Translations under genes and position numbers: made by a program
Notes under the pieces: model-generated
The model's input: the letters and a program-made list of their open reading frames with translations, nothing else
Told to the model about the DNA's origin: nothing
Database searches by the model: none
Origin: Eledone cirrhosa
Lineage: Eukaryota
DNA: 64,000 nucleotides
NCBI GenBank assembly: GCA_964016885.1
Contig: OZ024766.1
Coordinates: forward strand, 15,252,001-15,316,000
Reading direction: 5' to 3'
In this document: positions 10,246-62,606 of the stretch, one piece after another
Layout: every line of letters begins with the position of its first letter
How positions within the stretch are numbered: position 1 is the stretch's first letter

Positions 10246-10722
10246 CGGAAAAGATGAAACGATATTTCATTTCCCACTCTTAGTACGGCTGTTACTTAAA
10301 TATAAGTATGTACACGTACACACATATATGCATACCGACGTACAGTAGTATGTATATATATATATACATACATGCACACATATATATATGCATGTATGGA
10401 TTCACCGAATATTTATTATAATGCTCGGTGTGTTTGTAAACAAACATCCCGTATTAAGCCGTAGTGTCTAGCAACCACCGTTGCTCGTTTGTAGCCCGTT
10501 AATATGCATAAGGTAAGTATATACGTTCAACAATCTGGCAGGAAGGTATACGTTGCTGACGATAGCTAACAAGCTTGAAACTAGTACAGCGTTCCTTTGT
10601 CAGTGTTGAACAAACGAGCAACGGTGGTTGCTAGACACTACGGCTTAATACGGGATGTTTGTTTACAAACATTATAATAAATATTATAATAAATATTCGG
10701 TGAATCCATACGTGCATATATA
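10245..10722. mobile_element. Non-coding hammerhead-bearing element (family A) with ~100 bp inverted arms; Penelope pLTR/retrozyme-like
   Basis: 10398-10492 is the reverse complement of 10611-10707 (small indels), and the spacer contains a hammerhead motif. Related sequence recurs at 20400-20810 and 37970-38095. Confidence 0.65.
10550..10592 (+). ncRNA. Type I minimal hammerhead ribozyme motif (family A)
   Basis: ACGTTG-CTGACGA-TAGCtaacaaGCTT-GAAA-C-ta-GTA-CAGCGT. Stem I is ACGTTG/CAGCGT, the core is CUGANGA..GAAA, stem III is palindromic (ACTAGT) and the cleavage triplet is GUA. Confidence 0.8.
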
Positions 10723-11282
10723 TATTAATCTGTTATTTTAATAAATATTTTCTCTACAGTTCTTATATATTTGATATATATTTATCCTTATTGAGCCCTC
10801 TTTGGATTTTAGTCTTCAATTTTATTATTATTACTATATATATATATATATATACACATATAATTGTGTATTCACACATTATCTTAGTAATGATATAATA
10901 ATTTTAGTAAATTGTTCAAAATTCTTCATTAACCATTTTGGTAGAAACCCAGCCAAAATAGGTTCTCGTTATATGGAAATGGTTCCTATCTAAATTAAAG
11001 TCTTCCAACGAAATTCTATATAACAACCATATGTTATGTTACTATGTTAGTAATTAACTAACAATTGTGATAAATAGCCCAAATTATTCATAATTAATTG
11101 AAATACGAGGTTCATAATTATAATAAAATCTTCGAACAGGCTACGAAGCCGGTAAACCTTAAAGGTACGCAACACACACATCGCTATAGCGTTTCACCTG
11201 CCAATTCATTCCTCAATCATTACATAGATGTGTGTGTATGTAATAAATATTTTGTATTGTGTCTATTTATGAATATGTATGA

Positions 11283-13340
11283 GTAGATGTGTGTGTGTGT
11301 GTGTGTGTGTCCCAGTAGATGGGTGTGTATGTAACACAGTAGATGTGTGTGTATATAACACAGTAGATGTGTGTGTATATCACACAGTACATGTGTGTGT
11401 ATGTAACTCAGTAGATGTGTGTGTATGTAACCCAGTAGATGTATGTGTATGTAACTCAGTAGATGTGTGTGTATGTAATACAGTAGATGTGGGTATGTAA
11501 CACAGTAGATGTGTGTGTATGCAACATAGTAGATGTGTGTATGTAACACAGTAGATGTGTGTGTATATAACACAGTAGATGTTTGTGTATGTAACACAGT
11601 AGATGTGTGTAACACAGTAGATGTGTGTGTATGTAACACAATAGATGTGTGTGTATATAACACAGATGTGTGTGTATGTAACACAGTAGATGTGTGTGTA
11701 TGTAACACAGTAGATGTGTGTGTATGTAACACAGTAGATGTGTGTGTATGTAACATAGTAGATGTGTGTATGTAACACAGTAGATGTGTGTATTGTAACA
11801 CAATAGATGTGTGTGTATGTAACACTGTAGATCTCTGTATATGTAACACAGTAGATGTGTGTATGTAACACAGTAGATGTGTGTGTATGTAATACAGTAG
11901 GTGTGTGTGTATGTAACACAGTAGATGTGTGTGTATGTAACACAGTAGATGTGTGTGTATGTAACACAATAGATGTGTGTGTATATAACACAGTAGATGT
12001 ATATGTATGTAACTCAGTAGATGTGTGTGTATGTAACACAGTAGATGTGTGTGTATGTAACACAGTAGATGTGAGTGTATGTAACTCAGTAGATGTGAGT
12101 GTATGTAACCCAGTAGATGTGTGTAACACAATAGATGTGTGTGTATATAACACAATAGATGTGTGTGTATGTCACACAGTAGATGTGTGTGTATGTAACA
12201 CAGTAGATGTGTTTGTATGTAACACAGTAGATGTGTGTGTATGTAACACATTAGATGTGTGTGTCTGTAACACAGTAGATGTGTGTGTATGTAACACAAT
12301 AGATGTGTGTGTATATAACACAGATGTGTGTGTATGTAACACAGTAGATGTGTGTGTATGTAACACAGTAGATGTGTGTGTATGTAACACAGTAGATGTG
12401 TGTGTATGTAACATAGTAGATGTGTGTATGTAACACAGTAGATGTGTGTATTGTAACACAATAGATGTGTGTGTATGTAACACAGTAGATGTGTGTATGT
12501 AACACAGTAGATGTGTGTGTATGTAATACAGTAGGTGTGTGTGTATGTAACACAGTAGATGTGTGTGTATGTAACACAGTAGATGTGTGTGTATGTAACA
12601 CAATAGATGTGTGTGTATATAACACAGTAGATGTATGTGTATGTAACTCAGTAGATGTGTGTGTATGTAACACAGTAGATGTGTGTGTATGTAACACAGT
12701 AGATGTGAGTGTATGTAACTCAGTAGATGTGAGTGTATGTAACCCAGTAGATGTGTGTAACACAATAGATGTGTGTGTATATAACACAATAGATGTGTGT
12801 GTATGTAACACAGTAGATGTGTGTGTATGTAACACAGTAGATGTGTTTGTATGTAACACAGTAGATGTGTGTGTAACACAGTAGATGTGTGTGTATGTAA
12901 CACAATAGATGTGTGTGTATATAACACAGTAGATGTGTGTTTATGTAACACAGTAGATGTGTGTGTATGTAACCCAGTAGATGTGTGCGTATATAACCCA
13001 GTAGATGTGTGTATGTAACACAGTAGATGTATGTGTATGTAACCCAGTAGATGTGTGTGTATGTAAGACAGTAGATGTGTGTGTATCTAAGACAGTAGAT
13101 GTGTGCATGTAACACAGTAGATGTGTGTGTATGTAACACAATAGATGTGTGTGTATGTAACACTGTAGATCTCTGTATATGTAACACAGTAGATGTGTGT
13201 ATGTAACACAGTAGATGTGTGTGTATGTAACACAGTAGGTGTGTGTGTATGTAACACAGTAGATGTGTGTGTATGTAACACAGTAGATGTGTGTGTATGT
13301 AAGACAGTAGATGTGTGTGTATGTAACACAGTAGATGTAT
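11283..13340. repeat. 24-bp minisatellite (GTAGATGTGTGTGTATGTAACACA)n with higher-order block duplication
   Basis: Direct tandem unit visible throughout; the 8-aa periodic ORFs reflect it. A run of variant units at ~11855 recurs at ~12489. Confidence 0.97.
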
Positions 13341-14182
13341 ATATAACTAAAGTGTAACGTAAGTTAAAATGGACGACAAAATGACTTTAACTTGTTTTTT
13401 AACAATTGATGGTGGAAAAGATTTTAAATTGTCTTAACTCAGACCATAAAGGGCTGCAACACATGGTGTTTGACACTCTTACCGGCTACATAGCCAGGGA
13501 TTCTATTTTACGGGGTCCGGTTACATAGCTTCTTCTTAAAAATCTTCCAACATAATTTTATACAAGAACCACATGTTAAGTTACTAATAAAATAATTAAT
13601 AATTAAAAACTTCAGTAAATCCTTCAAATGATATCTCAGTAATGAAATAATTAATAATTGTTATAAATACCTCAAAATTCCTCATTAATTAAACCCCAGA
13701 CAGGTAAAAACTCCAGAGTCTTTCAGTCGGACATGAAACAAATTCATTTCTAATGGAAAAAGTAAAGATTGTAAAGTCAGCCAAGGGAGATCACTCTCAG
13801 CGACTTATTGTAAATCTTGTTCGTGAATTAATCCGGATTAAATTATTCTGGTGTATTTTGTGTGGAGGAAACCGGGTTTACGCGGTGATAGCGCGTAATT
13901 CAAGAACGTATGGTTCGTGAGACCGGGTGGTCTGTGCGTTGGCCCCTTGAACAAAACATTTCTCCCAGCTGGCAAAACTAATAAGTTGTACCAGTAATTA
14001 TAGGGTAACGTTGTTACATAGAATTGTCACACTGAATCTCTCTGAGAACAATGTCAACGGTACACGTGTCAATGAAATACCCAGACGCATTATAATATAA
14101 GATGGATTCTATATGTATTTAAAAAGGAAGGCATGTCACACGTTTTGTCTCGCTGAATCTCCCTGTGAACTATGTAAATACT

Positions 14183-15458
14183 AGTGACTATCAGACATAG
14201 TGTATCTCGGACTACATTATCTAATGTACAGTACAGTAGTTAGTATTAGTGGTTATCAGACATAGTATATCTAGGACTACATTATCTAATGTACAGTACA
14301 GTAGTCAGTATTACTGGCTATCAGACATAGTGTATCTAGGACTACATTATCTAATGTACAGTACAGTAGTTAGTATTAGTGGCTATCAGACATAGTGTAT
14401 CTAGGACTACATTATCTAATGTACAATACAGTAGTTAGTATCAGTGGCTATCAGACATAGTGTATCTAGGAATACATTATCTAATGTACAGTACAGTAGT
14501 TAGTATTAGTGGCTATCAGACATAGTGTATCTAGGACTACATTACCTAATGTACAGTACAGTAGTTAGTATTAGTGGCTATCAGACATAGTATATCTAGG
14601 ACTACATTATCTAATGTACAGTACAGTAGTTAGTATTAGTGGCTATCAGACATAGTATCTCTAGGACTACATTATCTAATGTACAGTACAGTAGTTAGTA
14701 TTAGTGACTATCAGACATAGTGTATCTAGGACTACATTATCTAATGGACAGTATAGAAGTTAGTATTAGTGGTTATCAGACATAGTATATCTTGGACTAC
14801 ATTATCTAATGTACAGTATAGTAGTTAGTATTAGTGGCTATCAGACATAGTGTATCTAGGACTACATTATCTAATGTACAGTATAGTAGTTAGTATTAGT
14901 GGCTATCAGACATAGTGTATCTAGGACTACATTATCTAATGTACAGTACAGTAGTTAGTATTAGTGGCTATCAGACATAGTGTATCTAGGACTACATTAC
15001 CTAATGTACAGTACAGTAGTTAGTATTAGTGGCTATCAGACATAGTGTATCTAAGACTACCTTATCTAATGTACAATATAGTAGTTAGTATTACTGGCTA
15101 TCAGACATAGTGTATCTAGGAATACATTATCTAATGTACAATATAGTAGTTAGTATTACTGGCTATCAGGCATAGTGTATCTAGGAATACATTACCTATT
15201 GTACAGTGTAGTAGTTAGTATTAGTGGCTACCAGACATAGTGTATCTAGGACTACATTACATAATGTACAGTACAGTAATCAGTATTAGAGGCTATCAGA
15301 GATAGTGTATCTAGGACTGCATTATCTAATGTACAGTACAGTAGTTAGTATTAGTGGCTATCAGGCATAGTGTATCTAGGACTACATTATCTAATATACA
15401 GTACAGTAGTTAGTATTAGTGGCTATCAGGCATAGTGTATCTAAGACTACATTATCTT
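14183..15458. repeat. 65-bp tandem repeat, ~19-20 copies
   Basis: Unit TAGTGGCTATCAGACATAGTGTATCTAGGACTACATTATCTAATGTACAGTACAGTAGTTAGTAT; period 65 (actacattat at 14341 and 14406). Confidence 0.97.
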
Positions 15459-15963
15459 AACTGCACATAGCATCCAACCCTGACAGTATGGTGTCCTGGA
15501 AATATGTACATTCAAAGCAGAGACCTCACTCTTCTCTTCACAATCTCCACACAAGCCAGGTTACTGACGACCCAAGAAATGCACAGAATTCATTGCTGAA
15601 AGAAATGGAGGCATTTTCACTGTTGAAGACCAAAATGTACCATCTCCACCACCTCTGACATCAGATTCTATTACAACTATGGAATTTAGACCTGCAATGC
15701 CACCTTACAAAACCTCTACGTAGTCTTTCTAACTGCTAGAAATAGCAGCGATATTATCCATTACAACTTCGTTTTTTTGTTTAAAATATCCAAAGTTTAG
15801 TTATGAAATCAACAGCAAGTCCTTTGCACAGACTTCGGAATAAACTCGAAGACCGTCAAAATATCATTCTCCTTCTCTCTCTCTTTAAACAAAGAATAGC
15901 TGCTTTCAACCTTAACGAGATCTTCTGAAACTCATTATTTTAATCAATAGTTGCTCTACGGCT

Positions 15964-16023
<60 letters not shown>

Positions 16024-16116
16024 GTAATTCCGTCGGAAAAGTGCAGGAAAAAAGAGTGCTCTATGTAGGCAACAGAGCTTAATTATTATTATGTAATAAA
16101 CAACATAAGGCAATTA

Positions 16117-16176
16117 TTCCATTTACCAGTGGTTTCTTAAAAGCAAAAGGTTTTGCTTTCAATCCTCAGAATGAAA
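16117..16176 (-). ncRNA. Type I hammerhead ribozyme motif (family B)
   Basis: Minus strand: TTTCATT-CTGAGGA-TTGAAAGCAAAAccTTTTGCTTTTAA-GAAA-CCACTGG-TA-AATGGAA; same sequence as the copy at 19585. Confidence 0.8.
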
Positions 16177-16331
16177 AAATCCTGGTTTGTTTATTGAATT
16201 TGGATTTTAAAAAACAAAAATGCAAACTATATGAAAGTGAGGCTGGAGAAGGGAGAAGGAAAGGAAAAATAAAATAAAACTACACATGCAAACACACACA
16301 CAAAAACACAAAAGCATACATACACACACAC

Positions 16332-16396
<65 letters not shown>

Positions 16397-16639
16397 CACA
16401 TATATATAAAAAAAAACATTGACACTCCTATGATAAATCAACCGCCTTGAAATCCTTCCCTGCTCTTTACTTCTGCTACGGTTTTTATTTTGCTGATTCT
16501 ACGTTCTGTACTCTTGTATATTTACTTATTTTTTTCTCCCTTACCTCCCCTTATATTTTACCTTTTCTTATGCCCCCCCCCCCATATATTCTTTTTGCCT
16601 TGCCCTTCACATACCTATGTGTATGTGTATGTATATTTG

Positions 16640-16712
<73 letters not shown>

Positions 16713-16789
16713 GTGTGTGTATGTGTATGTGTGTATATATATGTATATATTTGTGTGTGTGTATGTATATGTGGATAAACCAGGGTTTT

Positions 16790-16849
16790 TTTCATTCTGA
16801 AGATTGAAGGAAAAATTTTTTGCTTTTAAGAAACCACTGGTGAATGGAA
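16790..16849 (+). ncRNA. Hammerhead motif (family B), probably inactive variant
   Basis: TTTCATT-CTGAAGA-(weakened stem II)-GAAA-CCACTGG-TG-AATGGAA. The cleavage triplet is GUG, which violates the NUH rule. Confidence 0.65.
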
Positions 16850-17050
16850 TAATTGCCTTATGTTGCTTTATTACTTTACTACTATATATACGTATATGTA
16901 AGGTTCATATGAATTATCTAAGACTGAGTCTTACACATACACACATGTATGTGTGTGTGTATGTGTATGCATGTGTATATATATGTATGTATATGTATGT
17001 ATGTATATATATATATATATATATGTGTATATATATATATGTATATATAT

Positions 17051-18629
17051 GCCTTCGACAGAGTCCTCCGCTCCATTATCTGGTGGGCTCTTAGAAAACT
17101 AGGCGTTGACGAATGGCTTGTGAGGGCTATACAAGCCATGTATAAAGAAACAGTCAGCAAGGTTAGAATTAACAACGAATATAGTGAAGAGTTTAGCGTA
17201 AAAGTTGGCGTCCATCAGGGCTCTGTTCTCAGCCCACTACTATTTATTATTGCCCTTCAGGCTATAACAGAGGAGTTCAAGACAGGCTGCCCATGGGAAC
17301 TCCTATACGCAGACGACCTGACACTCATAGCGGAATCAATGGCCGAGCTAGAGAAGAAATTCCAAACATGGAAGCACGGCCTAGAGTCAAAAAGACTTAA
17401 AATTAACCTGGCTAAGACCAAAGTTCTAGTTTGTAGGAAAGAAAACAAGGCGGTGGTCCCTTCTGGGAAATGGTCGTGCTCGGTGTGTAGGAAAGGCGTA
17501 GGTAGAAACTCCATTTTATGTCCTAAATGCAAAGTATGGGTGCATAAAAGATGTAGTGGGATCACAGGTAAGCTAACGAAGAACACAGATTTTACATGTG
17601 GCCGGTGCTCTGGTGCAATAAGTAGCAGCAAGTGCCCACAAAATACTAGCTCTTTCAATTGCGCAGAGGGTTCTATAGAAATAGTGGACAGCTTCCGTTA
17701 CCTGGGCGATAAAATCAGCAGTGGGGGAGGGTGCTCTGAAAGTACTGTAGCTAGAGTCAGAACTGGTTGGAAAAAGTTCAGAGAGCTTATACCACTATTA
17801 GCTGCTAAAGGGTTCTCCCTAAAAATGAAAGGCAGGTTGTACGATGCCTGCATACGAACAGCAATGTTGCATGGCAGTGAGACCTGGGCATTGTGTGCAG
17901 AGGATATACGCAGACTAGAGAGGAACGAAGCTTGCATGCTCCGCTGGATGTGTAACAGTAATATACGTGAACGGCAAAGCATAAACGAACTAAGGAAAAA
18001 ATTAGAGATAAGAGGGATCAGATGTTGTTTACTCGAGAGAAGGCTACGTTGGTATGGACACGTGATGCGCATGAAAGTCGATAGCTGTATAACAAAGTGC
18101 AGGGCAATAAAGATAGACGGTAGCCACGGAATAGGCAGACCTAGAAAAACCTGGGACGAGCTGATAAACTCCGACCTCACACACTTACACCTCTCCAAGA
18201 CAATGTCACTGGACCGAGACCTTTGGCGGTACTCAGTAACAGAGAAGACCCGCCTAGCCAGTAGGCATCTCTAACAAAATACACCCCGTCCCGCCACCAC
18301 CCCCACCCATCCACACCACCCCGTCCTATGTAAAGTTATGTTGGTGCCGCGCCATCCAGGCCGAAACAAATGAGATCGTGTAGGTGTTACGACAAAAAAA
18401 CACACAGTCCACGCTGTAATGTGGCCGTGTAGGCAACACGGTAAAAACCTCCCAGACCCACACTGTAAATGTGGTTGGTGTTAGGAAGGGCATCCAACTG
18501 TAGAAAACCTGCCAGACAGTCCTATGCGAGCAAGACAATCACTCTTGCCTCAAGTGGGACTACCCCCGTCCAAACCCATGCAAGCGTGGAACACGGACGT
18601 TAAATGTTGATGATGATGATGATGATGAT
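17051..18629 (+). mobile_element. 5'-truncated RTE LINE family B inserted in a (TA)n tract
   Basis: Open frame from AFDRV through the RT, PHD-like finger and C-terminus, then 3' UTR and (GAT)n tail; closely matches the copy at 35801-37960. Confidence 0.95.
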
Positions 18630-19252
18630 ATATGTGTGTATATGTATGCGTGTGTATGTATATATGTATGTGTGTCTGTGTTTGTGTTTGTATTTGGTTG
18701 TGCGTGTTTATGATATGTACGTATTTGTATGTGTATAATTGTTTAGCTATGTATGTATATGTGTGTGTATGTATACGTATGTGTGTGTGTGTGCGTTTAT
18801 ATTTATGTATATATATGTATATATATATATATATGTGTGTGTGTATATAATTACATATACATATGTGTGTGTATATATTGTATACGTGTGCGTATTTGTG
18901 CATGTATGTGCATGTATGTGTTTATGTATTTGTATATGTATATTTATGTGTGAGAGTGTGTGTATGTGTTTACGATTTCGTACGTATGTATACGTGCATT
19001 TGTGTGTATTACTTACCACGCGTGTCTGTCCAGTTAGCTGCCTTATGTAACGGTGTCAAAAAATTTTTTTAATATATATATATATTTTTTCTTATATTTA
19101 TTTGCGTGTGTGAATATGTAGAGGAGTGCATTTATGTATGTGTATGTACGTATGTATATATGTATGATTGTGTGAATGTATGTATGCATATATGTGTGTG
19201 TGTATGGCTATGTTTGTGTATGTGTATGCTTGTACACACATATATATATGTA

Positions 19253-19307
<55 letters not shown>

Positions 19308-19406
19308 ATATGTGTGTGTGTATGTGTATGTATGCGTGTATGTATGTGTATATGTGTATGTATGTGCATGTGTATATTTGTGTATGTATATATATATGTA
19401 TATATG

Positions 19407-19437
<31 letters not shown>

Positions 19438-19584
19438 ATGTATGCTTTTGTGTTTTTTTGTGTGTGTGTTTGCATGTGTAGTTTTATTTTATTTTTCCTT
19501 TCCTTCTTCCTTCTCCAGCCTCACTTTCATATAGATTGCATTTTTGTTTTTTAAAATCCAAATTCAATAAACAAACCAGGATTT

Positions 19585-19644
19585 TTTCATTCTGAGGATT
19601 GAAAGCAAAACCTTTTGCTTTTAAGAAACCACTGGTAAATGGAA
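19585..19644 (+). ncRNA. Type I hammerhead ribozyme motif (family B)
   Basis: Stem I TTTCATT/AATGGAA, core CTGAGGA, 11-12 bp stem II, GAAA, near-palindromic stem III ACCACTGGT, GUA triplet (predicted cleavage after 19637). Confidence 0.8.
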
Positions 19645-20164
19645 TAATTGCCTTATCTTGTTTATTACATAATAATATTTTACATGGTAGACATTATTTG
19701 AATTTTGAAAATGTGAGACCAGAGAAATTGCTTCATGTGACACTGTAAGAAAACATTAAAAAATGAAATGCATATCTTCTTCTTTATCATTAAGTATGTC
19801 AGCAGCAGCAGCACCACACACACACACATATATATATACAGAGAGAGAGAGAGAGAAGAGAGAGAGTAGTTAATAATAAATACAAAGACCAAAATCTAGA
19901 GAGGGCTCAATAAGATAAGAGTTTTATGTATATATATATATATACATATATATGTATCATCATCATCATCATCATCATTTTACGTCCACTTTTCCCTGCT
20001 TGCGAGGGTGGGACGGAAACTGATTCTGGTTTGATTTCTACAGCTGGATGCCCTTCCTACCACCAACCTTATTTACAGTGAGTGCTGGGTGCTTTTTTGC
20101 TGTGGCACCTCCACGACCACTTTGCAGTGGAATGATAGAGGCCCAAGTCCCTATCATCTCATTT

Positions 20165-20291
20165 CTACAGCTGAGTAAACTGGAGCAATGTGAAATAAAG
20201 TGTCTTGCTCAAGGAAACAACACATCACCCGGTTTGAGAATTGAACTCACAACCTTTCGATTGCAAGGCCAATGCTCTAACCACTAAGCCA
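20165..20291 (-). mobile_element. tRNA-derived SINE, family 1 (CORE-like body)
   Basis: Minus strand ATGGCTTAGTGGTTAGAGC (A box) ..GAGTTCAATTCTC (B box) ..TCCTTGAGCAAGACACTTTATTTCAC. Other copies lie near 23080, 26640, 27100, 27470, 29545, 31890 and 46830. Confidence 0.8.
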
Positions 20292-20515
20292 TAGAGAGAG
20301 AGAGAAGTGAGAGAGTAGTTAATAATAAATAGAAACACCAAAATCTGGAGAGGGCTCAATAAGATAAGAGTTATATATATATATATGTATATATATATAA
20401 GTTGAAAAAAATGAAAACGAAATTTCATTTCTCACTCTTAGTATGGCACTTACTTAAATGTAAGTATGTATGTATACGTACATACATATATGTATACGGA
20501 CGTACAGTAGCATGC

Positions 20516-20546
<31 letters not shown>

Positions 20547-20698
20547 TACAGGTACACATACATATATGCACGCATCAGTTTAGCGGACGCTTATTATAAC
20601 GCCGCTTTGTTCGTTTGTCAACAAACTGAACAGCCTGAATTTATGCCATACGGTGTTAAGGCAACCACGTCACCTTTTTGTTCAACACTGACACAGGA

Positions 20699-20741
20699 AC
20701 GATGTACTAGTTTCAAGCTTGTTAGCTATCATCAGCACCGT
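20699..20741 (-). ncRNA. Type I minimal hammerhead ribozyme motif (family A, second copy)
   Basis: Minus strand: ACGGTG-CTGATGA-TAGCtaacaaGCTT-GAAA-C-ta-GTA-CATCGT; stem I ACGGTG/CATCGT. Confidence 0.8.
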
Positions 20742-21296
20742 TTACCCATCTGCCAGATAGTTGAACGTTCGAAAGTATATTCTTTCCTTATCAAAATTAA
20801 CGGCTGAGCAGCCTAATTTGCATATTGAGTGAGTTAAATCGGTCAGGCATCAAATTTGTGTTCTTTTATTTTGTTTTTGATATGCTACCAAGGATTGGGG
20901 GTTAGAGTTGTGTTTGCATTCCTGTCCAGTTGTTATATGGTTTGGATGGCTATTCTAGTAGGCAGATATGAAGCAGGAGGTGCTATTGTTGCTGACATAC
21001 TAGGGATGGTAAGTAGGTTAAGGTATCAAATTACCAGAGGGGTCAGTCATCACCCCACCCCCCGTTCATATATGTTAAAGAATTTGTTTATTTTTTTGTT
21101 TATTTGAACTTTGTTTATTTGTTTGAACTACATAGCTATATATCCAGGCTGTGTATTATTAGAGAAGGTGATTCTTGTGTAACTATGTAAGGATGCATTT
21201 AGTCATTATGTTCAGCTCTAGGTGGAAGTTAGCATGGAATGTGTTAACTATCTAATCTAAGGAAAGTTTTAGATATTTTATGCATACAAGTATTAA

Positions 21297-23519: not shown

Positions 23520-23629
23520 CTACAATGAAAGATCATGAGAAAACCTCTGCTCTTTTATCTCACTAAACATTTGTAAAAAAAATGAGGTTCAACTGAGTAA
23601 GAATACAAAGGATTAATAGGATTAATCAA

Positions 23630-34195: not shown

Positions 34196-35517
34196 TCTAT
34201 ACTATAAAGCTGATGGCCGTATGTAGGTACAAACTTTCTGCCAAACGGCTAGACCAAACAGCACCAAATTTGCTCCATAGATGTAACTTTTTCCAAGTAA
34301 AAAAGTGAGGGTATTTTTGTCTACTGAATGATTAAAGACATTATTTAAATATTCACTTCTTTAAAATTTCAAACATCAACACTTCCGGTTATACGTCATT
34401 CCTCACTTTTCTTATGACGTCACACAACATTCCCCTCTTTTTCTTAGTCTGTATGTCTGGCTGTCTGCATTAGATAACGTTTTTCGAAATATTTACTTCT
34501 GCGTTCACAGACTGATATTTTTAGTTTCAGAAGATCCCGTTAAGGGTGAAAGCAGCGATTCTTTGCTTAAACTTTAATCTGTTATTTTAATATATATATT
34601 CGTGTACAGATATTTTTGCATACACAAAAACAAAAACCTATTTATTTCATGAAAGCACAGACAGCTTATCGTCATTGTTACTGTTCGAGGTTAGAGGACC
34701 ACAGTCTTTCCAAGATCTGAGAACCATCAATGGCCATCAATGTTCCACTTACTGTTAGGCTTGCCAGATGCGTGGTATGTTACATGATGACAGCCATTGA
34801 CACCTCACCCTGCTAAATAGCTAAAGTCCCTTCTCAGCTGCGAAAACCTTTTGCTATTATGCTGCACAACTGCGATATCGCCGAGCCTCTCGCACTGTGG
34901 AACAACCACTGCGAAAGTCTAGCTGAGGACATCCTCCACCGCACACGCAGACACAATCCAAACCTAACATACAATGTCGTTTTCAATGAGGCGCTCATTT
35001 GTCTTGAAAACAGAGTCCTGGAGAATGGTGGTCGGCCTCTAGGCCACTACAGCTTACCTGCTCCTGACAGGAGTATCCAGAGGTCAACGTCTACAGAGCT
35101 TCTCTGCGAGACGAGCTACGAAATCAGTGATTCTCCCATGGTCAATTGTATGTAGGATGCTCTAGGGTTAGCTTACCAAACAATCTTTGCTCCGGAGGGC
35201 TGAACAAAAAATATTTTATACTCTGAGGCTCTAACAATGTAATTTAAATATTTTCTGTTAATTAGAATTTCCATTATGGTTGTACAAATTATTGTTTGTT
35301 AAAAAATGTGTTCTCTGTTCAGCCTTTATTGTTGTAACTATCAATTTTCTTTAACGTACTGGCTGCTGAAGTGGGGAATCTTAAAAACTATTGAAACCCA
35401 ACACCAGAGCACATTAACCCCCAAGCCCTCGCTTACTTGAGAGGGTATGCGGTATCTTTCCTGAAAAGATAAAATGCCGGTATACTTAGCCAGGCACCAG
35501 CCGGAAAGGCCAGCTAG
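34196..35517 (+). mobile_element. Non-autonomous Helitron with both termini and an internal RepHel remnant
   Basis: A|TCTATACTATAAAG at 34196; GC-rich imperfect hairpin followed by CTAG|T at 35517; internal RGPQSFQDLRTING..LWNNHCESLAEDILH fragment at 34680-35140. Confidence 0.85.
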
Positions 35518-37960: not shown

Positions 37961-38099
37961 ATATATATATATATTTCTCACTCTTAGTGCGGCTGTTACT
38001 TAAATATAAGTATGTATACGTACATACATATATGTATACAGGCGTACAGTAGTATGTATATATATATACATACATGCACACATATATATATGTACGTAT

Positions 38100-41000
38100 G
38101 GCACTCAATGACAATGTCACAGATAAAGACAAATTCACCTCCTGCTGCAAGACAAGAATACAAGGACCCCTCTTTATTTCAGACACAGATGACCAACAAA
38201 ATCCCGTCTCCCACACCCCTCCCTGTCCCTCCAACCCATCCATCCCACCCTCCCAACTTCAGAGTTGGTACCATGAACGTAGGCACATTGAAAGGTCGCT
38301 CAAATGAGGTTGTAGAGATGCTTGAACGTAAAGAAGTTGATGTTTGTTGTATTCAAGAGGCTAGGTGAGGAGGGGGATCTGCCAGATTCATCGTGGGTAA
38401 AAAACGATGCTATAAACTTTTCTGGGTGGGAAATGACAACAGACAGGGTAGTGTAGGAATTATGTTAGCTGAAAAATGGGTAGATAAGGTAATGACGTAA
38501 ATATAGTGAATGACAGAATAATTGAATTAAGACTAGTTCTAAATAGAATTACTGTGACAATAATATCTCCTTATGCACCCCAATCTGGTCTACCTGATGT
38601 TATAAAGGACAGGTTCTATTAGATGCTAATGCACACTACCTCCCAAATAACCGAAAGTGACTACTTAATTATTGCTAGCGATCTAAACAGTCACGTTGGA
38701 CAACATAGTGATGGCTATGATGGAATCCATGGAGGCTATGGGATTGGAAATAGAAATGAAGAGGGTTTCAGAATCCTAGAATTCAGTGATGCAAATAGCC
38801 TAACTATATGTAACACAAACTTAAAAAAACGTGAATACCATTTAATCACCTATAGATCAGGGGAACACGCCAGCCAGATAGATTATATCCTTACTAGAAG
38901 ACGGGACAAAATGTCTGTTGTAAACTCTAAATCCCTCCCCCGTGAAGAATGCACCTCGCAACATCGCTTAGTAGTTAGTGACCTCATAGTCAGGAATAGA
39001 CGTACTCGACGACAGAAGAGGCCTACCTTGAGGAGAAGAATATGGAAGTTGAAGGACCCCATAGCCAGTGACAAATTTAAAAGCTTATTATTTGTTGCCT
39101 TTGACAATAAGGAAGAGCAATTAGAGACGTGCAATAGAGAGGAACAGTGGCAATTCTTGAAAGTGAACCTGCTGAAAGCAACGGATGAAATCTGTGGCTG
39201 GAGTAGACCTATTGGCAGGAGGAGAGTAACTTGGTGGTGGAACAGTGAGGTGGAAGAGACAATCAAGGCCAAAAAGCAGGCTTGGAAAGAATGGCAGGAC
39301 GGGGGAAGTAGAGAGCACTATCAAGTGGCCAGGAGAGAAGCTAGGAGACAAGTGTACCTTGCAAAAAGGGTAGCAGAGGATAGAAAGTTCAAGCATGTTC
39401 TGCAACGTGAGGACCAAAAACGTGAGGTGTTCAGGATTGCTAGACAATGTGTCAAGGAAAACCGTGATATTGTCGGGGAGAAGTGTGTCCGTAATGATAA
39501 TGGTGTACTTGCGCTCACTGATACTGATAAGCCTGGAAGTGGCACTACGAGAGACTATTAAATGAGAAGAATAAATGGGAAAAAGATAGTCTGCCCCAAA
39601 TCGATCCAATGGTGCAAGGTAAAGGTAGTATAAGTAAGGCAATCAAAGATATGAAGACAGGCAAGGCAGCTGGGCCTTCGGAGGTAGTTGCTAAGATGTT
39701 GAAGGCATCTGGTATGGCGGGACACACTATGGTCACCCGTATAGTTAACCAAGTAATACAGAATGGGGTCATACCGAAAGACTGGCGTAGCAGCATCATC
39801 ATTAACTGCTACAAGGGTAAAGGGGATGCTCTAGATAGGGGAAACTATAGAGGCATTAAGTTAGTTGACCAGGTCATGAAGGTCACAGAAAGAGTAATAG
39901 CGCAACTAATCAGAGAGCGAATTGATCTAGATGAAATGCAGTTTGGGTTTGTGTCAGGTAAAAGTACCACAGACGCTCTTTTCCTTGTACGACAACTACA
40001 AGAGAAGTACCTAGCTAAAAGAAAACCCCTCTACTTAGCTTTTGTAGACCTGGAGGAAGCTTTTGACAGAGTCCCCCGCTCCATTATCTGGTGGGCTCTT
40101 AGAAAACTAGATGTAGATGAATGGCTGGTGAGAGCTATACAAGCTATGTATAATGAAACAGTCAGTAAGGTTAGAATTAACAATGAATATTGTGAAGAAT
40201 TTAGTGTAAAAGTTGGCGTTCATCAAGGCTCTGTCCTTAGCCCCCTCTTATTTATTATTGCCCTTCAGGCTATAACAGAGGAGTTCAAGACCCGCTGCCC
40301 ATGGGAACTCCTATACGCATATGATCTAACGCTCATAGTTGAATCAATGGCTGAACTAGAGAAGAAATTCGAAACATGGAAGCATGGCCTAGAATCAAAA
40401 GGCCATAAAGTTAACTTGTCTAAGACTAAAGTTCTAGTTTGTAGAAAGGAAAATAGGGCACAGGTGCCCTCAAGGAAATGGCCATGCTCAGTGTGTAGGA
40501 AAGGAGTAGGCAGAAATTCCATTTTATGTCCCAAATGCAAAGTATGGGTGCATAAAAGATGTAGTGGGATCACAGGTAAACTATCTAAGAACGTAGACTT
40601 TATATGTGGCCAATGCTCAGGTGCAATAAGTAGCAAGTGTCCAAAGGATACTAGCTCCTTCCATTGCCCAGATGGTTCTATAGAAATAGCAGACACTTTC
40701 CGTTACCTGAGTGACGAAATCAACAGTGGTGGAGGGTGTTCTGAAAGTACAGTAGCCAGAGTCAGAACAGGATGGAAAAAGTTCAGAGCGCTTATACTGC
40801 TGTTGGCCACAAAAGGTTTCTCTCTAAAAATGAAAGGCAGATTGTATGATGCCTGTATACAAACAGCAATGCTACATGGCAGTGAGGCATGGGCATTACC
40901 TGCAGAGGACCTGTGTAGGCTGGAAAGGAACGAAGCATGCATGCTCCGTTGGATGTGTAATAGTAATATACGTGAACGACAAAGCATAAATGAACTAAGT

Positions 41001-49874: not shown

Positions 49875-50915
49875 CAATTGTGTGAGGTCAGCTTTTATCA
49901 CCTCATCCCAGGTCTTCCTACTCTATAGCTTCCATCAATTGTGTGAAGTCAGCTTTTATCACCTCATCCCAGGTCTTCCTACTCCATAGCTTCCATCAAT
50001 TGTGTCAGGTCAGCTTTTATCACCTCATCCCAGGTCTTCCTACTCTATAGCTTCCATCAATTGTGTCAGGTTAGCTATTATCACCTCATCCCAGGTCTTC
50101 CTACTTCATAGCTTCCATCAATTGTGTCAGGTCAGCTGTTATCACCACATCCTAGGTCTTCCTACTCTATAGCTTCCATCAATTGTGTGAGCTCAACTTT
50201 TATCACCTCATCCTAGGTCTTCCTACTTCATGGCTTCCATCAATTGTGTGAAGTCAGCTTTTATCACCTCATCCCAGGTCTTCCTACTTCATAGCTTCCA
50301 TCAATTGTGTGAGGTCAGCTTTTATCACCTCAAACTAGGTCTTCCTACTTCATAGCTTCCATCAATTGTGTCAGGTCAGCTTTTTCACCTCATCCCAGGT
50401 CTTCCTACTTCATAGCTTCCATCAATTGTGTGAAGTCAGCTTTTATCACCTCAGACTAGGTCTTCCTACTCTATAGCTTCCATCAATTGTGTGAGATCAG
50501 CTTTTATCACCTCATCCCAGGTCTTCCTACTCCATAGCTTCCATCAATTGTGTGAGGTCAGCTTTTATCACCTCATCCCAGGTCTTCCTACTTCATAGCT
50601 TCCATCAATTGTGTCAGGTCACCTTTTATCACCTCATCCCAGGTCTTCCTACTTCATAGCTTCCATCAATTGTGTCAGGTCACCTTTTATCACCTCATCC
50701 TAGGTCTTCCTACTCTATAGCTTCCATCAATTGTGTGAGGTCAGCTATTATCACCTCATCCCAGGTCTTCCTACTTCATAGCTTCCATAAATTGTGTCAG
50801 GTCACCTTTTATCACCTCATCCCAGGTCTTCCTACTTCATAGCTTCCATCAATTGTGTCAGGTCACCTTTTATCACCTCATCCCAGGTCTTCCTACTTCA
50901 TAGCTTCCATCAATT
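49875..50915 (-). repeat. 61-bp tandem array (17 copies) derived from the C-terminal coding region of an RTE LINE
   Basis: The unit on the minus strand corresponds to IDGSY.VGR/KTWDEVIKADLTQ. The flank 49805-49875 continues as LHFSKTMTQDRDLWCY. Units are joined at CAATT. Confidence 0.9.
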
Positions 50916-51016: not shown

Positions 51017-51605
51017 CCCTTTAGTGTCCAAACCAGCCAAAACCGGCCAGAATTCTCTACCTCTTTCTGTTGAAACTGGCTGTAACTGGTCGCTCAGACT
51101 GATGTTAAGGTATTGTTCTCAAAATAAATACTTTCAAAATCTGATAGATTCAATATTATGTGAGATAAAGCCTTTACCATGAAAATATAATAGTATATAT
51201 AAAATAATGTGAATGCTAAAGGGTTAACCCTTTAACATTTAAACCGGCAATAACTGGCCAGAGTTCTGTCCTCTTTTTCTTTTTAAACCACCCGTAACTG
51301 GCCACTCATACTGATGTTAAAGTATTGTTCTCAATATAAATAATATCAGATTCGATATTATGTGAGGTAAAGACTTTACCATGGAAATATAATAGTATAT
51401 ATAGAGTAATGTAAATGTTATGTGAGATAAAGACATTACCATGGAAATATAATAGTATATATAGAGTAATGTAAATGTTATGTGAGATAAAGACATTACC
51501 ATGGAAATATAATAGTATATATAGAGTAATGTAAATGTTATGTGAGATAAAGACATTACCATGGAAATATAATAGTATATATAGAGTAATGTAAATGTTA
51601 AAGGG
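51017..51605. mobile_element. Two adjacent piggyBac-like MITEs sharing a TTAA; the second carries a 60-bp x4 array
   Basis: TTAA-CCCTTTAG…AAAGGG-TTAA-CCCTTTAA…AAAGGG-TTAA (51017-51223 and 51228-51605). Confidence 0.85.
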
Positions 51606-52472: not shown

Positions 52473-53417
52473 AAACCGATTGTTATATTCTTTGATTTGT
52501 AAATATATATAAATGATTTGATATCTAAATTCTATATTATTCTATTTGTTTGAAATGTTGTAATACATGCTTATGTTATTCTCGATACTCAGGTTTTTAA
52601 CCTAATATTTAATTAAAAGTATAATTATGCATGAGTATATACACACAAATATATATTTAGTTGGAATAAAATATAATGAACTTTCTAAAGTTGTAACTTG
52701 GTATCTGACATTCTGCTGTCCTTAAATATTCTGTCCAGAACTTTGACCTAATTGTCTTCCTCTATTGTAACACCCCTCCTCATCCTCTAACTGCTTTCCA
52801 TTGAATTTCATCTTTTATCTCCTTTTCAGCCGATGGATTTTGTTGATTTAGAAACCAGCCAATGAATACCATCGGTCAATATTCCTTTATATTTTGATAT
52901 GTTTTTTATTCTTGTAATAAAATTAGTTTTCATTCAACACTGACGATAGAGAGCGGATGGAGGTATGTTGTATTTTCTTTGTATAATTTGTAAAATATAA
53001 AATATATATATATATATCTTAATGAAAATACACATGCCAATATCTGATCCCTTGAAACGATCGTCTGTTAAAGTGTAAATCAATATTAATAGGAAGAACA
53101 TGTTCTTTGTTTAATTTTTCATTGTTTTTCAATGTCTTATTTTGACTCTGTCTTCCAATTGTTTTACATTATTAATTAACTACATGTATTTTTTATGATT
53201 TTTCCACATTTGGATTACATTGAGTTCTCTATACGGATTCGACACTACCGTTTACTCCGGTAGATTAATCTGTTATATATATATATATATTTCCTGGACT
53301 TTTGCTCTATGTTTTGTTTTTCGTCGATTATTTGACGTGTTTTACATTCTTCGGTGTTGAATATCAAATCAAGCGAATTGCATTATTCCAACTGTGTCAA
53401 TATAGTGCTCATTAAGA

Positions 53418-57563: not shown

Positions 57564-58550
57564 ATATTAACTGAAATCACAGTTGAGGGAAATATAGAAG
57601 AATATTTTATAAGAAATATAATATAAAAAATATTACAAGAAAAACATCTGTATATTCTGTTGAAGAAGAAATCATTATGCCAAATAAATTGACAAAGAAG
57701 ATTAAATGTGAAACACAATCTAAAGTGTTTAGTATTGCTGGTGAGATGACAAAGGTTAGAGAACAGAAGCCATATCACTGTGATATCTGTGGTATATCAT
57801 TCTCTCAAAGAGGTACCTTAACTACTCACAAACGTATACATACAGGTGATAAGCCATATCACTGTGATATCTGTGGTAAATCATTCTCTGGGAAAAGTAG
57901 CCTAACTACTCACAAATGTATACATGCAGAAGAGAAATCATAATGCATTGATATCAGTGATAAATCATTCTCTCAAATTTGTGAATTAATGAGAATACAA
58001 ATACATATCATTGTAACATCTTAGGGAAAGCATTCTCTTTGAATGTTACATTAACTACACACACACATATACATACAGCTGGGAAGCCATATCACTTTGA
58101 TATATTTGGTACATCATTCTCTAAATGTTGTGGCTTCACTAGACACTAACATCTACAGGAGAGGAACCATATCACTGTGATGTCTGTGATAAATCCTTCT
58201 GTAAATGTGGTTTCACTAGACACCAACATATACATACAGGAGAGGAACGATATCACTGTGATGTCTGTGATAAATCCTTCTCTAAATGTTGTGGTTTCAC
58301 TAGACACCAACATATACAGGAGATGAACCATATCACTGATGTCTGTGATAAATCCTTCTCTAAATGTTGTGGTTTCACTAGACACTAACATATACATACA
58401 GAAGAGGAACCATATCACTGATGTCTGTGATAAATCCTTCTCTAAATGTTGTGGTTTAATTAGACACTAACATATACAGGAGAGGAACTATATCACTGTG
58501 ATGTCTGTGGTACATCTTTCTCTTATAAAGATTACTTAATGCAACACAAT
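57564..58550 (+). pseudogene. C2H2 zinc-finger array exon; two intact fingers, then degenerate fingers
   Basis: Acceptor ttcag|atatt at ~57563; [41 protein letters not shown]; stop at 57941-57943, followed by frameshifted finger repeats up to ~58550. Confidence 0.85.
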
Positions 58551-59760: not shown

Positions 59761-61319
59761 GTCCACAGGTTGACACAACATTTAGTGGTTTGAAGTATGC
59801 TCCAATTTTATTCCCCTTCACATCTTAACACTCCACCCCCTTACCAGCTAAGTACACCACCCTGACACACCTCTCCAATCCCCACCCTACATACACACAA
59901 CCCCACCCCCACTTTCACATCTGATACACCTCTCTTGACCAACCCATGTATACAAGTATGGAAAGCTTAACATGCTCTCCTCCAATGCTGCTGAAATGGC
60001 TAAACCCTCAGGCAACCCTGTAAGGTGGTCATGCAGGTGTCATGACAAAAGAGCACCAAGTCCTCTCTGTTAGGTAACATGACAAAAGAACACCTAACCC
60101 TCCCTGCAAGGTAGTCATGCTGATGACATGACAAATAAGCACCCAGTCCACCCTGTGAGGTAGACATGACAGAAGGCCCCTAGCCCACTCTGTAAAGTAG
60201 TCATGCTAGTGCTAGTGACAAGACTGAAGGGACCCGAAGCACCCTTCAAAGTGATCAAATTGGTGACATGACTTGACACCATTTTTTAGTTTACTTCTAA
60301 AATATCTCATTTTTATTTTACTTCTAAACTATCTCATATATTTAAAAATTACTTATTTTAAAAAATTATTATTTATTTCTTAAAAAAATTACTTTTTAAA
60401 GATTATTTAAAATTTTTTAATATTTTTTAAATATTTTTAAACATTTTAAATAGTTTAAGTACTTTTTAAGTATTTTATTTTGTTAAAAGGGTTTTTTGAG
60501 TATCTTCTGAGATTAAAAAAAATTTTTTTTTTTATTTTTCCAGAAATTTTTTCCAGAACTTTTAATATTTTAATATTTTTAATATTTTTTAATTATTTAA
60601 TATTAGAGTTATAACCAATAACTAATTCTGGCTATATATATCTTTCAACATTTATATCTTCGTCAAAATGGTCTCATACTAACTAATAAATAAACAAAGC
60701 TGGGTTTTTCAGTATCTTCCTAATTTAAAACATTAAAAACATATAAATAATCTTATTAACTCAGTTAATTTAATTACTTACACTAAATATAAACCAGTAT
60801 CCCTCATAACTTATTAAAACAATTATCTATAACATGATATAGCCATTTATCCACTCATATATCTATTCTTCTATCTATTGATTCTCCTATTTTCTACTTT
60901 ATATCTATTTATTTTCAATTTATTATTCAATGTCTTTATATATATTTATTTTTTCTATATATCTATTTTTCTATATACTTATAATAGTAAATATTATATT
61001 GTATTATATTAGAATTCTAACAATAATTAGTAAATATACGTAACATTAATATAAACGTAATACTTATTTACGTTACATGAGTTCATCCTCTATAAATGTC
61101 TTTCTTCTCTCTATCTCTCTATCTATCTCATAACAGTAATTTTTTTCTCTCTCTTTCTTCTCTTTCTTCCCTATCTTTCCCCAGCGTAATTTAAATAAAC
61201 GGTTGTTTTTTTCAATTTTTCATACATTCATTTGCATATTCACACATAACTTTGAATTACCCCTAATAAGTTTCCCCTATCCAGCGAATTTCCGACCGTT
61301 ATTTATAAAACAAATTTTG

Positions 61320-61384
61320 TATTTTATCTGATGAAAGAGCACCAAGATTGACTTGGTCGCCCTTGAAATATATATAATAAAATA
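61320..61384 (+). ncRNA. Type I hammerhead ribozyme motif (family C)
   Basis: TATTTTAT-CTGATGA-AAGaGCACCAAGattgaCTTGGTcGCcCTT-GAAA-TATATATA-ATAAAATA: 8-bp stem I, long stem II, palindromic TA stem III, AUA triplet. Confidence 0.78.
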
Positions 61385-62541
61385 AATATGCAAAAGTCTA
61401 TTTAAATTGTTGGGATACAACAAGCAAATATGTTTATAACTGATATAAAGCACTCAACAAGTATTTGGAATAAACATACGATATTAACAATCCTTTTGTA
61501 TTTTATGTACTCAATTATATTATGTACTATATTGATTTATACTTCTCCCTATATGTGAGTATATATGTATATGTGTATATTGACATACATGTACATGCGT
61601 TCTATGCATTTTTATGAATATATTGACATACATGTACATGCGTTCTATGCATTTTTATGAATATATGTCTGTCTGTATGTATGCATGCGTGACGCGTATC
61701 TACCAATTGGCTGAGGATGCACACACATGTATATATATGTATATGTAAGAATTGTGTGTGTACATGTACATGTATACCCATACAATTTGATTGCAGATAG
61801 ACATTACTAACAGCCATAAATGCATACCAGCTAATCTTATATATTTATATATATATATTAAAAACATTTTTTATAAAAAATATTTTATTTAATGACACAA
61901 AGGATGGATAACATTAAATTAAAAATTCATTTATGCTTTGTATGTATATATTATATACGTGGTTAGATATGGTGTGTATTTTGTGAGTGTGTGTGTATAT
62001 ATATATATTTATGTGTATTTTTGCGTGTGTGTACGTGTTATATGATATGTAGTTCTCTAGCAATATATAGATTTCTTAATGTTTAGATTCCAAGTTTTAA
62101 TATATTGATCTCAATTTTTAAACTAAATATCTAATCATAGTTAAACAATGATTAATTTCTCATATTATGTATGTATATTCCATTCATGATTATTAATATT
62201 TCTAATTTTATTTATTCATTTCATCTCAATTGTTAAGTTAACTTAATATGACATGACTTAATGTGTTCATTCTTTCCCCCTCTCTCTATCTCTCTATTTT
62301 TCTCTCTGTCTGGTGTTTTGATATATCTCTCTCGTTTTTCTCTCGTTTTTCTTTTTTCTTGTTTTCTTTCTTTCTTTCTCCCTTTTCTCTCTCTCCGTCC
62401 TTTTCCTTATCTGTAACACTACGACTTATTTTAAAAATACTAATATAAGTAAACAACTCCACTATCCCTGAGTCTTCCAAAAGTAACGGTTGCATTTTGT
62501 AAGGGTATGTCAATATTTATTTATAAAACTGTTATATATTG

Positions 62542-62606
62542 TATTTTGTCTGATGAAAGCATACCATAATTTAACATGGTATCCTTGAAATATGTATAAT
62601 AAAATA
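62542..62606 (+). ncRNA. Type I hammerhead ribozyme motif (family C, second copy)
   Basis: TATTTTGT-CTGATGA-AAGcATACCATaatttaacATGGTATcCTT-GAAA-TATGTATA-ATAAAATA. Confidence 0.78.

Follow-up and report, generated by a model that had tools for sequence, protein, structure and literature searches.

Hammerhead motifs of an Eledone cirrhosa genome: ends of Hydra-clade Penelope-like elements and a retrozyme likely inserted by a Penelope enzyme

The hammerhead motifs of the window (the whole 64,000-nt stretch of Eledone cirrhosa DNA analysed here) belong to two kinds of mobile element. Those of families B and C are best explained as the 3′-terminal hammerheads of Penelope-like elements (PLEs) of the Hydra clade and those of family A as parts of an ORF-less retrozyme likely inserted in trans by a PLE RT/GIY-YIG enzyme, and we hold this reading with good confidence. 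Both kinds of element are already known, an octopus Hydra element with a hammerhead having been published (PMC8557442 supplement); what is new is the scale, plus an insertion footprint that ties retrozymes to PLE enzymes. The movement of animal retrozymes, and whether a circle is its template, are still argued from co-occurrence and homology. In this genome retrozyme insertions bear the PLE two-start-site footprint and intact candidate helper ORFs coexist with them, so that, with an in vitro PLE assay in existence, the question of retrozyme mobility becomes directly testable with mapped start sites.

Hammerhead motifs of the window

A preliminary description reported seven CUGANGA…GAAA cores, and all seven are where it placed them, with the core C3 at 10556+, 20735−, 16169−, 16797+, 19592+, 61328+ and 62550+ and the predicted cleavage nucleotides, in the same order, at 10586, 20705, 16124, 16842, 19637, 61376 and 62598. 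They had been taken for type I hammerheads with a palindromic stem III. The palindrome is present in all seven, and a type I descriptor (CUGANGA, GAAA, an NUH site and three stems closed by stem I) is passed by six; the sole failure is the motif at 16797, where G at position 17 makes the triplet GUG, outside the NUH rule. The proposed comparison with dinucleotide-shuffled sequence came out in favour of the motifs, with six real matches against one in 300 block-wise shuffles of the window. At the five of the seven sites computed, monomer hairpins of stem III are predicted to be unstable (+0.4 to +6.0 kcal/mol) and its dimer duplexes favourable (−2.2 to −8.2 kcal/mol). The seven motifs are genuine hammerhead-ribozyme folds, whose self-cutting is only predicted. 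All are of type I, and the layout of plant LTR retrozymes (type III hammerheads in two LTRs, 4-bp TSD) was not found.

The seven motifs represent five insertions, since the three of family B belong to a single PLE insertion. The preliminary description lacks two more hammerhead-like motifs, at 34528+ and 15927−, whose core is CAGAAGA. They are the window's two members of a fourth family, G, which is of Hydra type with a fixed U4A core and has 16,564 matches; a search based on CUGANGA misses it. The literature searched holds no report of a U4A-core hammerhead. Family G often lies close to family A because both share the (TA)n target. The window is AT-rich, and its copies are microsatellite-rich and nearly ORF-less; the statement that it holds no PLE ORF was nearly right, the exception being the last 10 residues and stop of the family B protein at 16418–16450. 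The features, in order, are as follows.

10244..10492, −: family A1 retrozyme, inverted arm, unit positions 24–272 from the cleavage site, without ribozyme core; its distal 3′ site borders (TA)n
10496..10725, +: forward arm of the family A1 retrozyme, covering unit 332 via the ribozyme to 136 and broken off at the TA run within the unit
10550..10592, +: type I hammerhead A1; 6-bp proximal stem I, U.U plus 4-bp stem II, AACA loop, 6-nt palindromic stem III, GUA at 10586
10726..10850, +: 3′ tail fragment of a Hydra-PLE of family G, abutting the A1 arm
15880..15984, −: decayed family G end; CAGAAGA-core motif (C3 15927) and inverted tail piece 15935–15984
16017..16419, −: family B PLE, inverted arm; hammerhead C3 16169, GUA 16124; tail of ~64 nt ending in (TA)n (distal end)
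16418..16450, +: family B RT+GIY-YIG ORF, last 10 codons and stop; 5′-truncation point of the forward arm
16790..16849, +: family B internal hammerhead copy, GUG triplet, predicted non-cleavable; fixed in the master element
17051..18627, +: RTE-type LINE, 5′-truncated, inserted into the family B 3′ UTR and no part of the PLE
18628..19680, +: family B 3′ UTR, TG/TA microsatellite-rich; terminal hammerhead 19585–19644 (C3 19592, GUA 19637); proximal 3′ end near 19676
20397..20850, −: family A2 retrozyme of very nearly one unit's length (321 to 310); C3 20735, GUA 20705; its distal 3′ end borders (TA)n
34523..34573, +: family G hammerhead-like motif, U4A core (CAGAAGA); 5-bp stem III, CUU site 34568
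37973..38101, −: family A fragment without ribozyme
60520..61389, +: C1, older C-type PLE 3′ end; hammerhead 61320–61384 (C3 61328, AUA 61376), distal stem I split by C2
61390..62646, +: C2, 5′-truncated family C PLE insertion; inverted tail arm 61390–61490, forward arm 61489–62646, hammerhead 62542–62606 (C3 62550, AUA 62598)

C2 is flanked by a 17-bp duplication (61373–61389 and 62647–62663).

Coding Penelope-like elements

On the strength of sequence, the five motifs of families B and C are shown to be 3′ ends of 5′-truncated Hydra-clade PLEs: the ends of both families sit downstream of Hydra-type RT+EN frames. The hammerheads had been linked to PLEs in advance, and the search beside PLE ORFs bears this out, the B and C ends joining RT/GIY-YIG frames. 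That all families are non-autonomous and ORF-less had also been supposed, which stands for A, a tandem unit without an ORF, and falls for B and C as coding PLE 3′ ends. Single frames of 713–718 codons, RT with C-terminal GIY-YIG, are intact in all six long family B copies examined, chosen from 14 with frames of at least 711 codons among 150 matches listed. The protein has RWK, DKT, YRDD, CxCx5C, CxxC and CxH and lacks DKG; CCHH is judged by eye to be absent, as the stretch from the GIY to the YIG strand has no cysteine (elsewhere a loose regular expression gave a match). This is the motif set of the Hydra definition (PMC8557442 section 11). For family C, RT and EN were found in broken frames. 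A Hydra-type frame ends ~0.5 kb upstream of the window-matching UTR in two loci (L122, L121), and sister subfamilies likewise have such a frame upstream in two unbiased loci (L141, L153); CxCx5C and YRDD are present in L122, and RWR and DKT in L054, which overlaps it at 91%. Atlas neighbours carry HTH_animal, GIY-YIG and RVT_1. Pfam gave no significant match for B and C ORF fragments, nor did a PDB sequence search with Hydra ORF fragments give recognition; assignment to the clade is by motifs and visual likeness to the supplement alignment of PMC8557442.

Further likeness to the Hydra-clade PLEs of PMC8557442 lies in the single ~700 aa ORF with RT and C-terminal GIY-YIG, RWK, DKT and the CxCx5C linker, in the lack of a cysteine pair between the GIY and YIG strands, and in (TA)n targets, a 3′ hammerhead, an inverted 5′-truncated copy and a tail at one end only. 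The insertion traits seen for B and C are (TA)n targets, partial tandems, an inverted 5′ copy and a tail at one end. The window's own B proximal end and C2 have AT-rich surroundings rather than a pure TA run. One published Hydra-clade PLE with a hammerhead is Hydra-1_Obim of Octopus bimaculoides (Craig et al. 2021, PMC8557442), whose stem III, ACCA-N-UGGU, is also that of family B. B, C and G are nevertheless other families: their hammerheads look unlike that of Hydra-1_Obim by eye, and the B protein is 58% identical to its best relative in the database. Tails are ~64–90 nt in B, C and G compared with 30–40 in the Hydra-clade PLEs of that study, which also differ from the present families in that 3′ UTRs here are long (1.8–2.3 kb in B) and microsatellite-rich, B has a second, internal GUG hammerhead, and G a fixed U4A core.

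Minimal PLE hammerheads have a palindromic stem III with predicted dimer cleavage (Cervera and de la Pena 2014, PMC4209133) and are mostly single or in opposite-strand pairs 100–700 bp apart, from truncated PLEs. Compared with these, B and C have a longer palindrome (8–9 nt) and an extended stem I, whereas the hammerheads of A and of the related non-coding family D look canonical, with conserved loop II and stem I bulge. The internal GUG hammerhead of B shares a 98-nt module alone, at 90%, with too few changes to test selection. Among 21 B 5′ junctions one is at the cleavage site (about chance) and 12 read through it; with no pile-up there, cleavage would leave no visible trace in the DNA.

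Non-coding retrozymes and the two-ended footprint

Family A, with two motifs in the window, is by its sequence a non-autonomous non-LTR retrozyme. Its ORF-less tandem units of 420–540 bp hold one type I hammerhead each; being AT-rich and head-to-tail, they are on that basis low-GC elements without LTR/PBS/PPT organisation. A pattern search gave 13,392 exact core matches in the genome and none in the control. Across 50 Mb the first 100 group into 49 clusters; direct tandems occur in 18 of these, a head-to-head flip in 18 and a tail-to-tail arrangement in none. Of the 100 matches, 52 stand in direct tandems, and the two window copies are monomer-sized. Metazoan non-LTR retrozymes (Cervera and de la Pena 2020, PMC7229834) have units of 220–240 bp in coral, 350–390 bp in mussel and 330/350 bp in axolotl. 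Family A resembles those described there: its tandem units are short, low in GC and free of ORFs, and each contains one type I hammerhead. It shares with axolotl HHR_Amex2 a U.U mismatch at the stem II base; its units, with their internal TA microsatellite, are longer.

The footprint is where the two kinds of element meet. A, D and the coding PLEs alike are inserted in (TA)n as head-to-head arms with one proximal and one distal fixed end. This holds for 14 of 14 scored A pairs, all four D pairs fully seen and 26 of 27 pairs of B, C and G, and PMC11167929 describes the tail as a sign, specific to PLEs, that the RT starts at two sites. In family A the fixed 3′ ends lie ~60 nt apart in the unit, at 216/275 (A1) and about 250/310 (A2); the mapped unit positions in D are about 129/163. 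(Among the contigs of four sequencing runs of unrecorded kind, those of X1, maybe the assembly's own sample, have loose ends in (TA)n where A1 has its distal end.) The sharing of this footprint suggests that A insertions were likely copied by a Penelope enzyme. PLE mobilisation is proposed in the available part of PMC7229834 from shared features only, whereas family A has mapped ends with the PLE two-end signature at the DNA level. Vertebrate retrozymes have been presented as PLE-dependent, non-autonomous PLE derivatives (Li, Clavereau and Pollet 2026 preprint, 10.64898/2026.07.22.740005); the conclusion there is the same, drawn from vertebrate co-occurrence and pLTR homology, with no mollusc sampled. 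For A and D no homology to the PLE ends tested (B, C, G) was found, the link being the integration footprint. Nor was an ORF joined upstream in nine single A copies; among these copies and ends no autonomous PLE turned up that has sequence in common with A or D, and it is insertion anatomy that links the two families to a helper. The shared (TA)n target prompts the guess that the helper is a Hydra family PLE.

Covariation of stems across genomic copies, named in the preliminary description as a check, is seen twice. Between A and D, 8 of 13 stem pairs have changed on both sides (nine hand-picked rows, resting largely on one divergence), and among C subfamilies 8 of 22 (14 rows); none of 500 shuffles was as high in either case. 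The core, loop II and the bulge of stem I do not vary from A to D, the stems covary and the remaining sequence shows no likeness, a combination that points to selection on the fold.

Alternatives, proposed mechanism and abundance

That the motifs are chance matches in AT-rich repetitive sequence might be thought from the window's composition and from an Rfam scan of it (E<=10) that gave no hammerhead match. (The scan's only matches were microsatellite-driven miRNA ones below gathering score.) The probability is practically nil, the idea being already refuted by the window shuffles and the covariation, and by an unbiased 540-kb sample with 25 descriptor matches compared with none in reversed sequence and one in 20 shuffles. 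The earlier supposition that all three families are non-autonomous ORF-less elements accords with the almost ORF-less, microsatellite-rich window copies and is true of A. As an account of all three it is highly improbable: B runs upstream into intact RT+EN frames, which refutes it there, C runs into a Hydra-type frame with ORF–UTR continuity in L121 and L122, and the B C-terminus is encoded within the window. Family A might also be a minisatellite to which a PLE end gave rise and which unequal crossover then enlarged in place, without its being mobilised as a unit, a scenario discussed in the 2026 preprint. Its tandem organisation would suit this, as would the greater likeness of units within arrays than between them (complete units diverge by 0.34% versus 1.28% in A1 and by 3.6% versus 6.4% in A2). 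We consider it improbable, the arrays being dispersed and having haplotypes common across the inversion; moreover their ends next to (TA)n fall at two fixed positions of the unit, which unequal crossover would not set.

A more serious possibility, though one we doubt, is that PLE machinery inserted the A and D arrays from linear, uncleaved multimeric transcripts of arrays already present, the ribozymes being weak or silent passengers and no circle being needed. A arms continue across the ribozyme site, in keeping with a circular or an uncleaved template, and about 1 of roughly 50 A junctions, read by eye, is at the cleavage site. Unit types alternate in two A loci (L135, L136), so that these arrays are not homogeneous and, like the A2 divergence, fit linear multimer templates or later decay. 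In vitro, anole PLE insertion proceeds without need of hammerhead cleavage and unprocessed RNA is the main substrate (PMC11167929), and in a published test only one of nine Xenopus retrozyme dimers was cleaved, eight being without cleavage. Against this, each of the four D arrays that hold several complete units shows a single haplotype of its own, and in both arrays whose two arms contain complete units this uniformity extends over the inversion (no differences in 120 comparisons within arrays, 46 of these spanning the inversion, versus 1.3% between arrays). Such uniformity needs a recent single-unit bottleneck. The invariant core, loop II and bulge also speak against mere passengers, and coral, mussel and axolotl retrozymes accumulate as circles (PMC7229834).

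On the preferred reading, of PLE ends and a retrozyme inserted in trans, the PLE enzyme would nick a (TA)n target and cDNA would be primed on both strands from two RNA start sites about 35–90 nt apart, after which two 5′-truncated cDNAs would join as an inverted pair. Read-through A and D transcripts may self-cleave as double hammerheads via the palindromic stem III, and the monomers may be ligated into circles; reverse transcription round a circle could then write arms of several identical units. A bolder version, which we offer tentatively as the less probable side of the matter, is that more than 100,000 hammerheads form a young PLE–retrozyme community, in which the arrays might directly preserve a rolling-circle copying of circular RNAs into cDNA by a PLE enzyme of Hydra type with two start sites. 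The most abundant autonomous family would then use a working U4A-core hammerhead, and the internal non-cleavable hammerhead of B might be a built-in partner, such that the transcript cuts at a single site.

Many copies genome-wide had been anticipated, as the count of A cores confirms, at a density of one motif per ~10 kb, which was too high: unbiased sampling gives ~46 per Mb, about one per 22 kb, or ~1.4 × 10⁵ genome-wide by extrapolation. About 10⁵ hammerhead motifs can thus escape Rfam and CUGANGA descriptors in a cephalopod genome.

Hammerhead motifs in the window and across the genome

All seven CUGANGA…GAAA cores of the preliminary description are present at the positions it gave, and by their sequence they are real hammerhead folds, with cleavage predicted for six. 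These six are picked up by a type I descriptor, which gave one match in 300 local dinucleotide shuffles; the motif it misses, at 16797, has an intact core and GUG as its cleavage triplet. Stem III is palindromic and, at the five sites computed, its hairpin is predicted to be unstable and an intermolecular duplex favourable. An Rfam scan of the window gave no hammerhead at E<=10.

The many genomic copies suggested earlier were borne out in an unbiased sample of 54 10-kb stretches placed at round-number coordinates. Descriptor matches (25, in 16 of the 54 stretches; reversed control 0, shuffles 1 in 20) amount to ~46 per Mb which, extrapolated to the 3.0 Gb genome, is 1.4e5 motifs (bootstrap 0.7-2.2e5). 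Genome-wide, exact patterns match 13,392 family-A cores, 6,822 of C type and 3,852 of B (internal and terminal motifs pooled), and a relaxed A/D-type pattern has 39,153 matches, the reversed-pattern control being 0 for each. Passages of PMC7229834 give over 6,000 hammerheads for coral, about 5,000 for mussel and up to 120,000 for axolotl, and a passage of PMC6962438 gives 235 Rfam hammerhead matches for giant squid.

Penelope-like elements of families B, C and G

The elements belong to two known kinds, Penelope-like elements (PLEs) with hammerheads, and retrozymes. The preliminary description took all the families to be non-autonomous. Of the seven motifs this is true for the two of family A; it fails for the other five, as families B and C are, judged from their sequences, the ends of coding PLEs: in other copies their motifs lie downstream of reverse transcriptase plus endonuclease (RT+EN) or Hydra-type frames. 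Past window position 16418 in the upstream direction, B copies elsewhere lead into an ORF, and 16418-16450 codes for its final residues. A search with its C-terminus gave, among the 150 matches listed, 14 with a frame open for 711 codons or more, and in 6/6 loci picked from those 14 and examined the RT+EN frame is 713-718 codons; in four of these six a hammerhead and tail (the stretch between two fixed 3′ ends, proximal and distal, of the arms) precede the frame, a partial-tandem form. The protein has RWK, DKT, YRDD, CxCx5C, CxxC and CxH and lacks DKG, a set matching the Hydra-clade diagnostics in section 11 of PMC8557442. Its closest database relatives (41-58% identity) are unnamed, many with PF26215.

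The three B motifs of the window come from a single insertion: one sits in the inverted arm, one is internal with GUG and one terminal with GUA, an RTE fragment lying between. The block recurs at about ten other places and, because its flanks are repeated with it, these are duplications rather than new insertions. In flank-distinct copies, many of them duplicates of one block, the internal hammerhead is GUG in 30/30 and the terminal one GUA in 40/40; the internal one could act as a non-cleavable partner in a double hammerhead, or be a relic. Among 21 junctions located 5′ of the B start codon, 12 run through the hammerhead and 1 is at it, so that cleavage in vivo stays a prediction.

Features of family B (L, other loci; C, other contigs of the genome)
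15900-20860: duplicated block with the B insertion and motif A2; copies on contigs C16, C19, C20, C23, C27 (L002-L011, L092-L100)
16790-16849; also L211-L216: internal GUG hammerhead module of the B master, downstream of the ORF; 98 nt long, matching the terminal module at 90%

In family C, loci L122 and L121 have a Hydra-type frame (37% identity to B) that stops ~0.5 kb upstream of a window-matching C UTR; unbiased loci L141 and L153 show this layout in sister subfamilies. The C1 subfamily itself gave no linked ORF and was placed in C by hammerhead and UTR likeness. The C2 insertion lies in the distal stem I of C1, with a duplication of 17 bp. Window 61005-62640 recurs on contig C16 (L031).

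Family G is another Hydra PLE, 39% identical to B, with a hammerhead-shaped motif at its 3′ terminus in which CAGAAGA replaces CUGANGA, making it invisible to CUGANGA descriptors. Its stem III is 5 bp long, and CUU is the candidate cleavage site. The core has 16,564 exact matches, position 4 being A in 100/100 among the matches listed, and the unbiased sample holds 13 matches of the motif in 6/54 stretches. Passages of PMC3088659 mention U4C as a tolerated hammerhead variant and not U4A.

Family G motifs with fixed U4A core
34523-34573 (+)
15880-15932 (-)
L136, L162, L183: further copies

Retrozyme units, their insertion footprint and their template

A single hammerhead, a TA microsatellite inside the unit and the lack of an ORF mark the units of family A (420-426 bp for A1, 456-556 bp for A2), which on these features is classed as a retrozyme. 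Its first 100 matches form 49 clusters, of which 18 contain direct tandems, 18 contain a head-to-head flip and none is tail-to-tail. Family D, with a 310-bp unit, is a second tandem retrozyme family, of which the window has none.

Family D
L136:6270-8500, L154, L228, L229, L230: as many as 14 identical units per array; an inversion, and a tail of 34 nt

The A and D units have no BLAST similarity to each other, yet their hammerheads align gap-free, and stem covariation, which the preliminary description left to be sought, is found: both sides changed in 8/13 pairs, with no change in the core, loop II or the stem I bulge (nine hand-picked rows, largely one divergence). Among C subfamilies it is 8/22 pairs, all in stem II.

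Family A arms have 3′ ends at two unit positions ~60 nt apart, against (TA)n, and variable 5′ junctions. Inverted pairs join one proximal to one distal end in 14/14 cases for A (13 independent, two being a local duplicate) and in 26/27 for B, C and G, counting pairs with both ends anchor-scored and leaving out those with an interrupted or unmatched end; for D it is 4/4 fully seen pairs. PLEs have a tail at one end (a passage of PMC8557442), which in vitro work attributed to two start sites of reverse transcription and which is called unique to PLEs (PMC11167929). From this two-end footprint shared by A and D, with its PLE-specific tail, we infer integration by a PLE enzyme of a putative helper family. 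Other PLE-like ORFs are candidate helpers (L130:5843-8176, L225:445-3012, L045, L012), with open frames of 778 and 856 codons bearing RT and C-terminal GIY-YIG features. There are further hammerhead families with stem III palindromes AUGCGCAU, AGUACU, AUGCACAU and ACAUGU (L131:2700-3000, L147, L172, L186, L174, L226), several showing the same tail pattern.

In A, the distance from the cleavage site down to the start sites is 216-310 nt. Arms nevertheless continue past the cleavage site over several units, which rules out a cleaved linear monomer as the usual template. Units within D arrays are identical, across the inversion too, and every array carries its own haplotype; A1 divergence is 0.34% within arrays versus 1.28% between, and the nearest neighbour is in the same array for 13/17 A1 and 22/25 A2 units. 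Such uniformity and within-array likeness favour a single-unit, probably circular template, though a uniform linear multimer would give the same picture. Some A arrays in L135 and L136 switch between two unit types (differing in length and one SNP), a misfit with a pure monomer circle hinting at a dimeric or multimeric template there.

Published counterparts and other features of the window

Hydra-1_Obim and its hammerhead are already in the PMC8557442 supplement. The genome's size, its TA microsatellites, RTE LINEs and C2H2 genes, and likeness to a published octopus element make an octopod cephalopod the probable source. The literature searches, which took in papers but not the Repbase and Dfam libraries, listed no account of cephalopod retrozymes, end-mapped retrozyme insertions or a U4A family; a term search of PMC13282606 found neither 'ribozyme' nor 'hammerhead'. 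The analysis adds the scale of the motifs, an integration footprint that connects retrozymes with PLE enzymes, and a family with a U4A core.

Other features of the window
53406-56135 (+): hAT-type transposase-like frame, uninterrupted, 909 codons (by eye)
42766-45069 (+): Ty3/gypsy pol-like frame (RT, RNase H, integrase), 767 codons (by eye)
23600-28150 (-), 57587-58523 (-): fragments resembling exons of a host gene (EGF/laminin-type and lectin-like) next to a Thr/Pro-rich repeat; C2H2 zinc-finger repeats (by eye)
20131-20292, 26642-26802, 46831-46968 and others: SINE-like repeats derived from tRNA, with weak matches to Rfam tRNA
25312-26039, 28656-29446, 51358-51600, 11296-13338, 14182-15457, 49875-50915: minisatellites

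The 60-73-bp minisatellites are mutually related and present in both orientations. The window also has several RTE-type LINE copies, and TA microsatellites.
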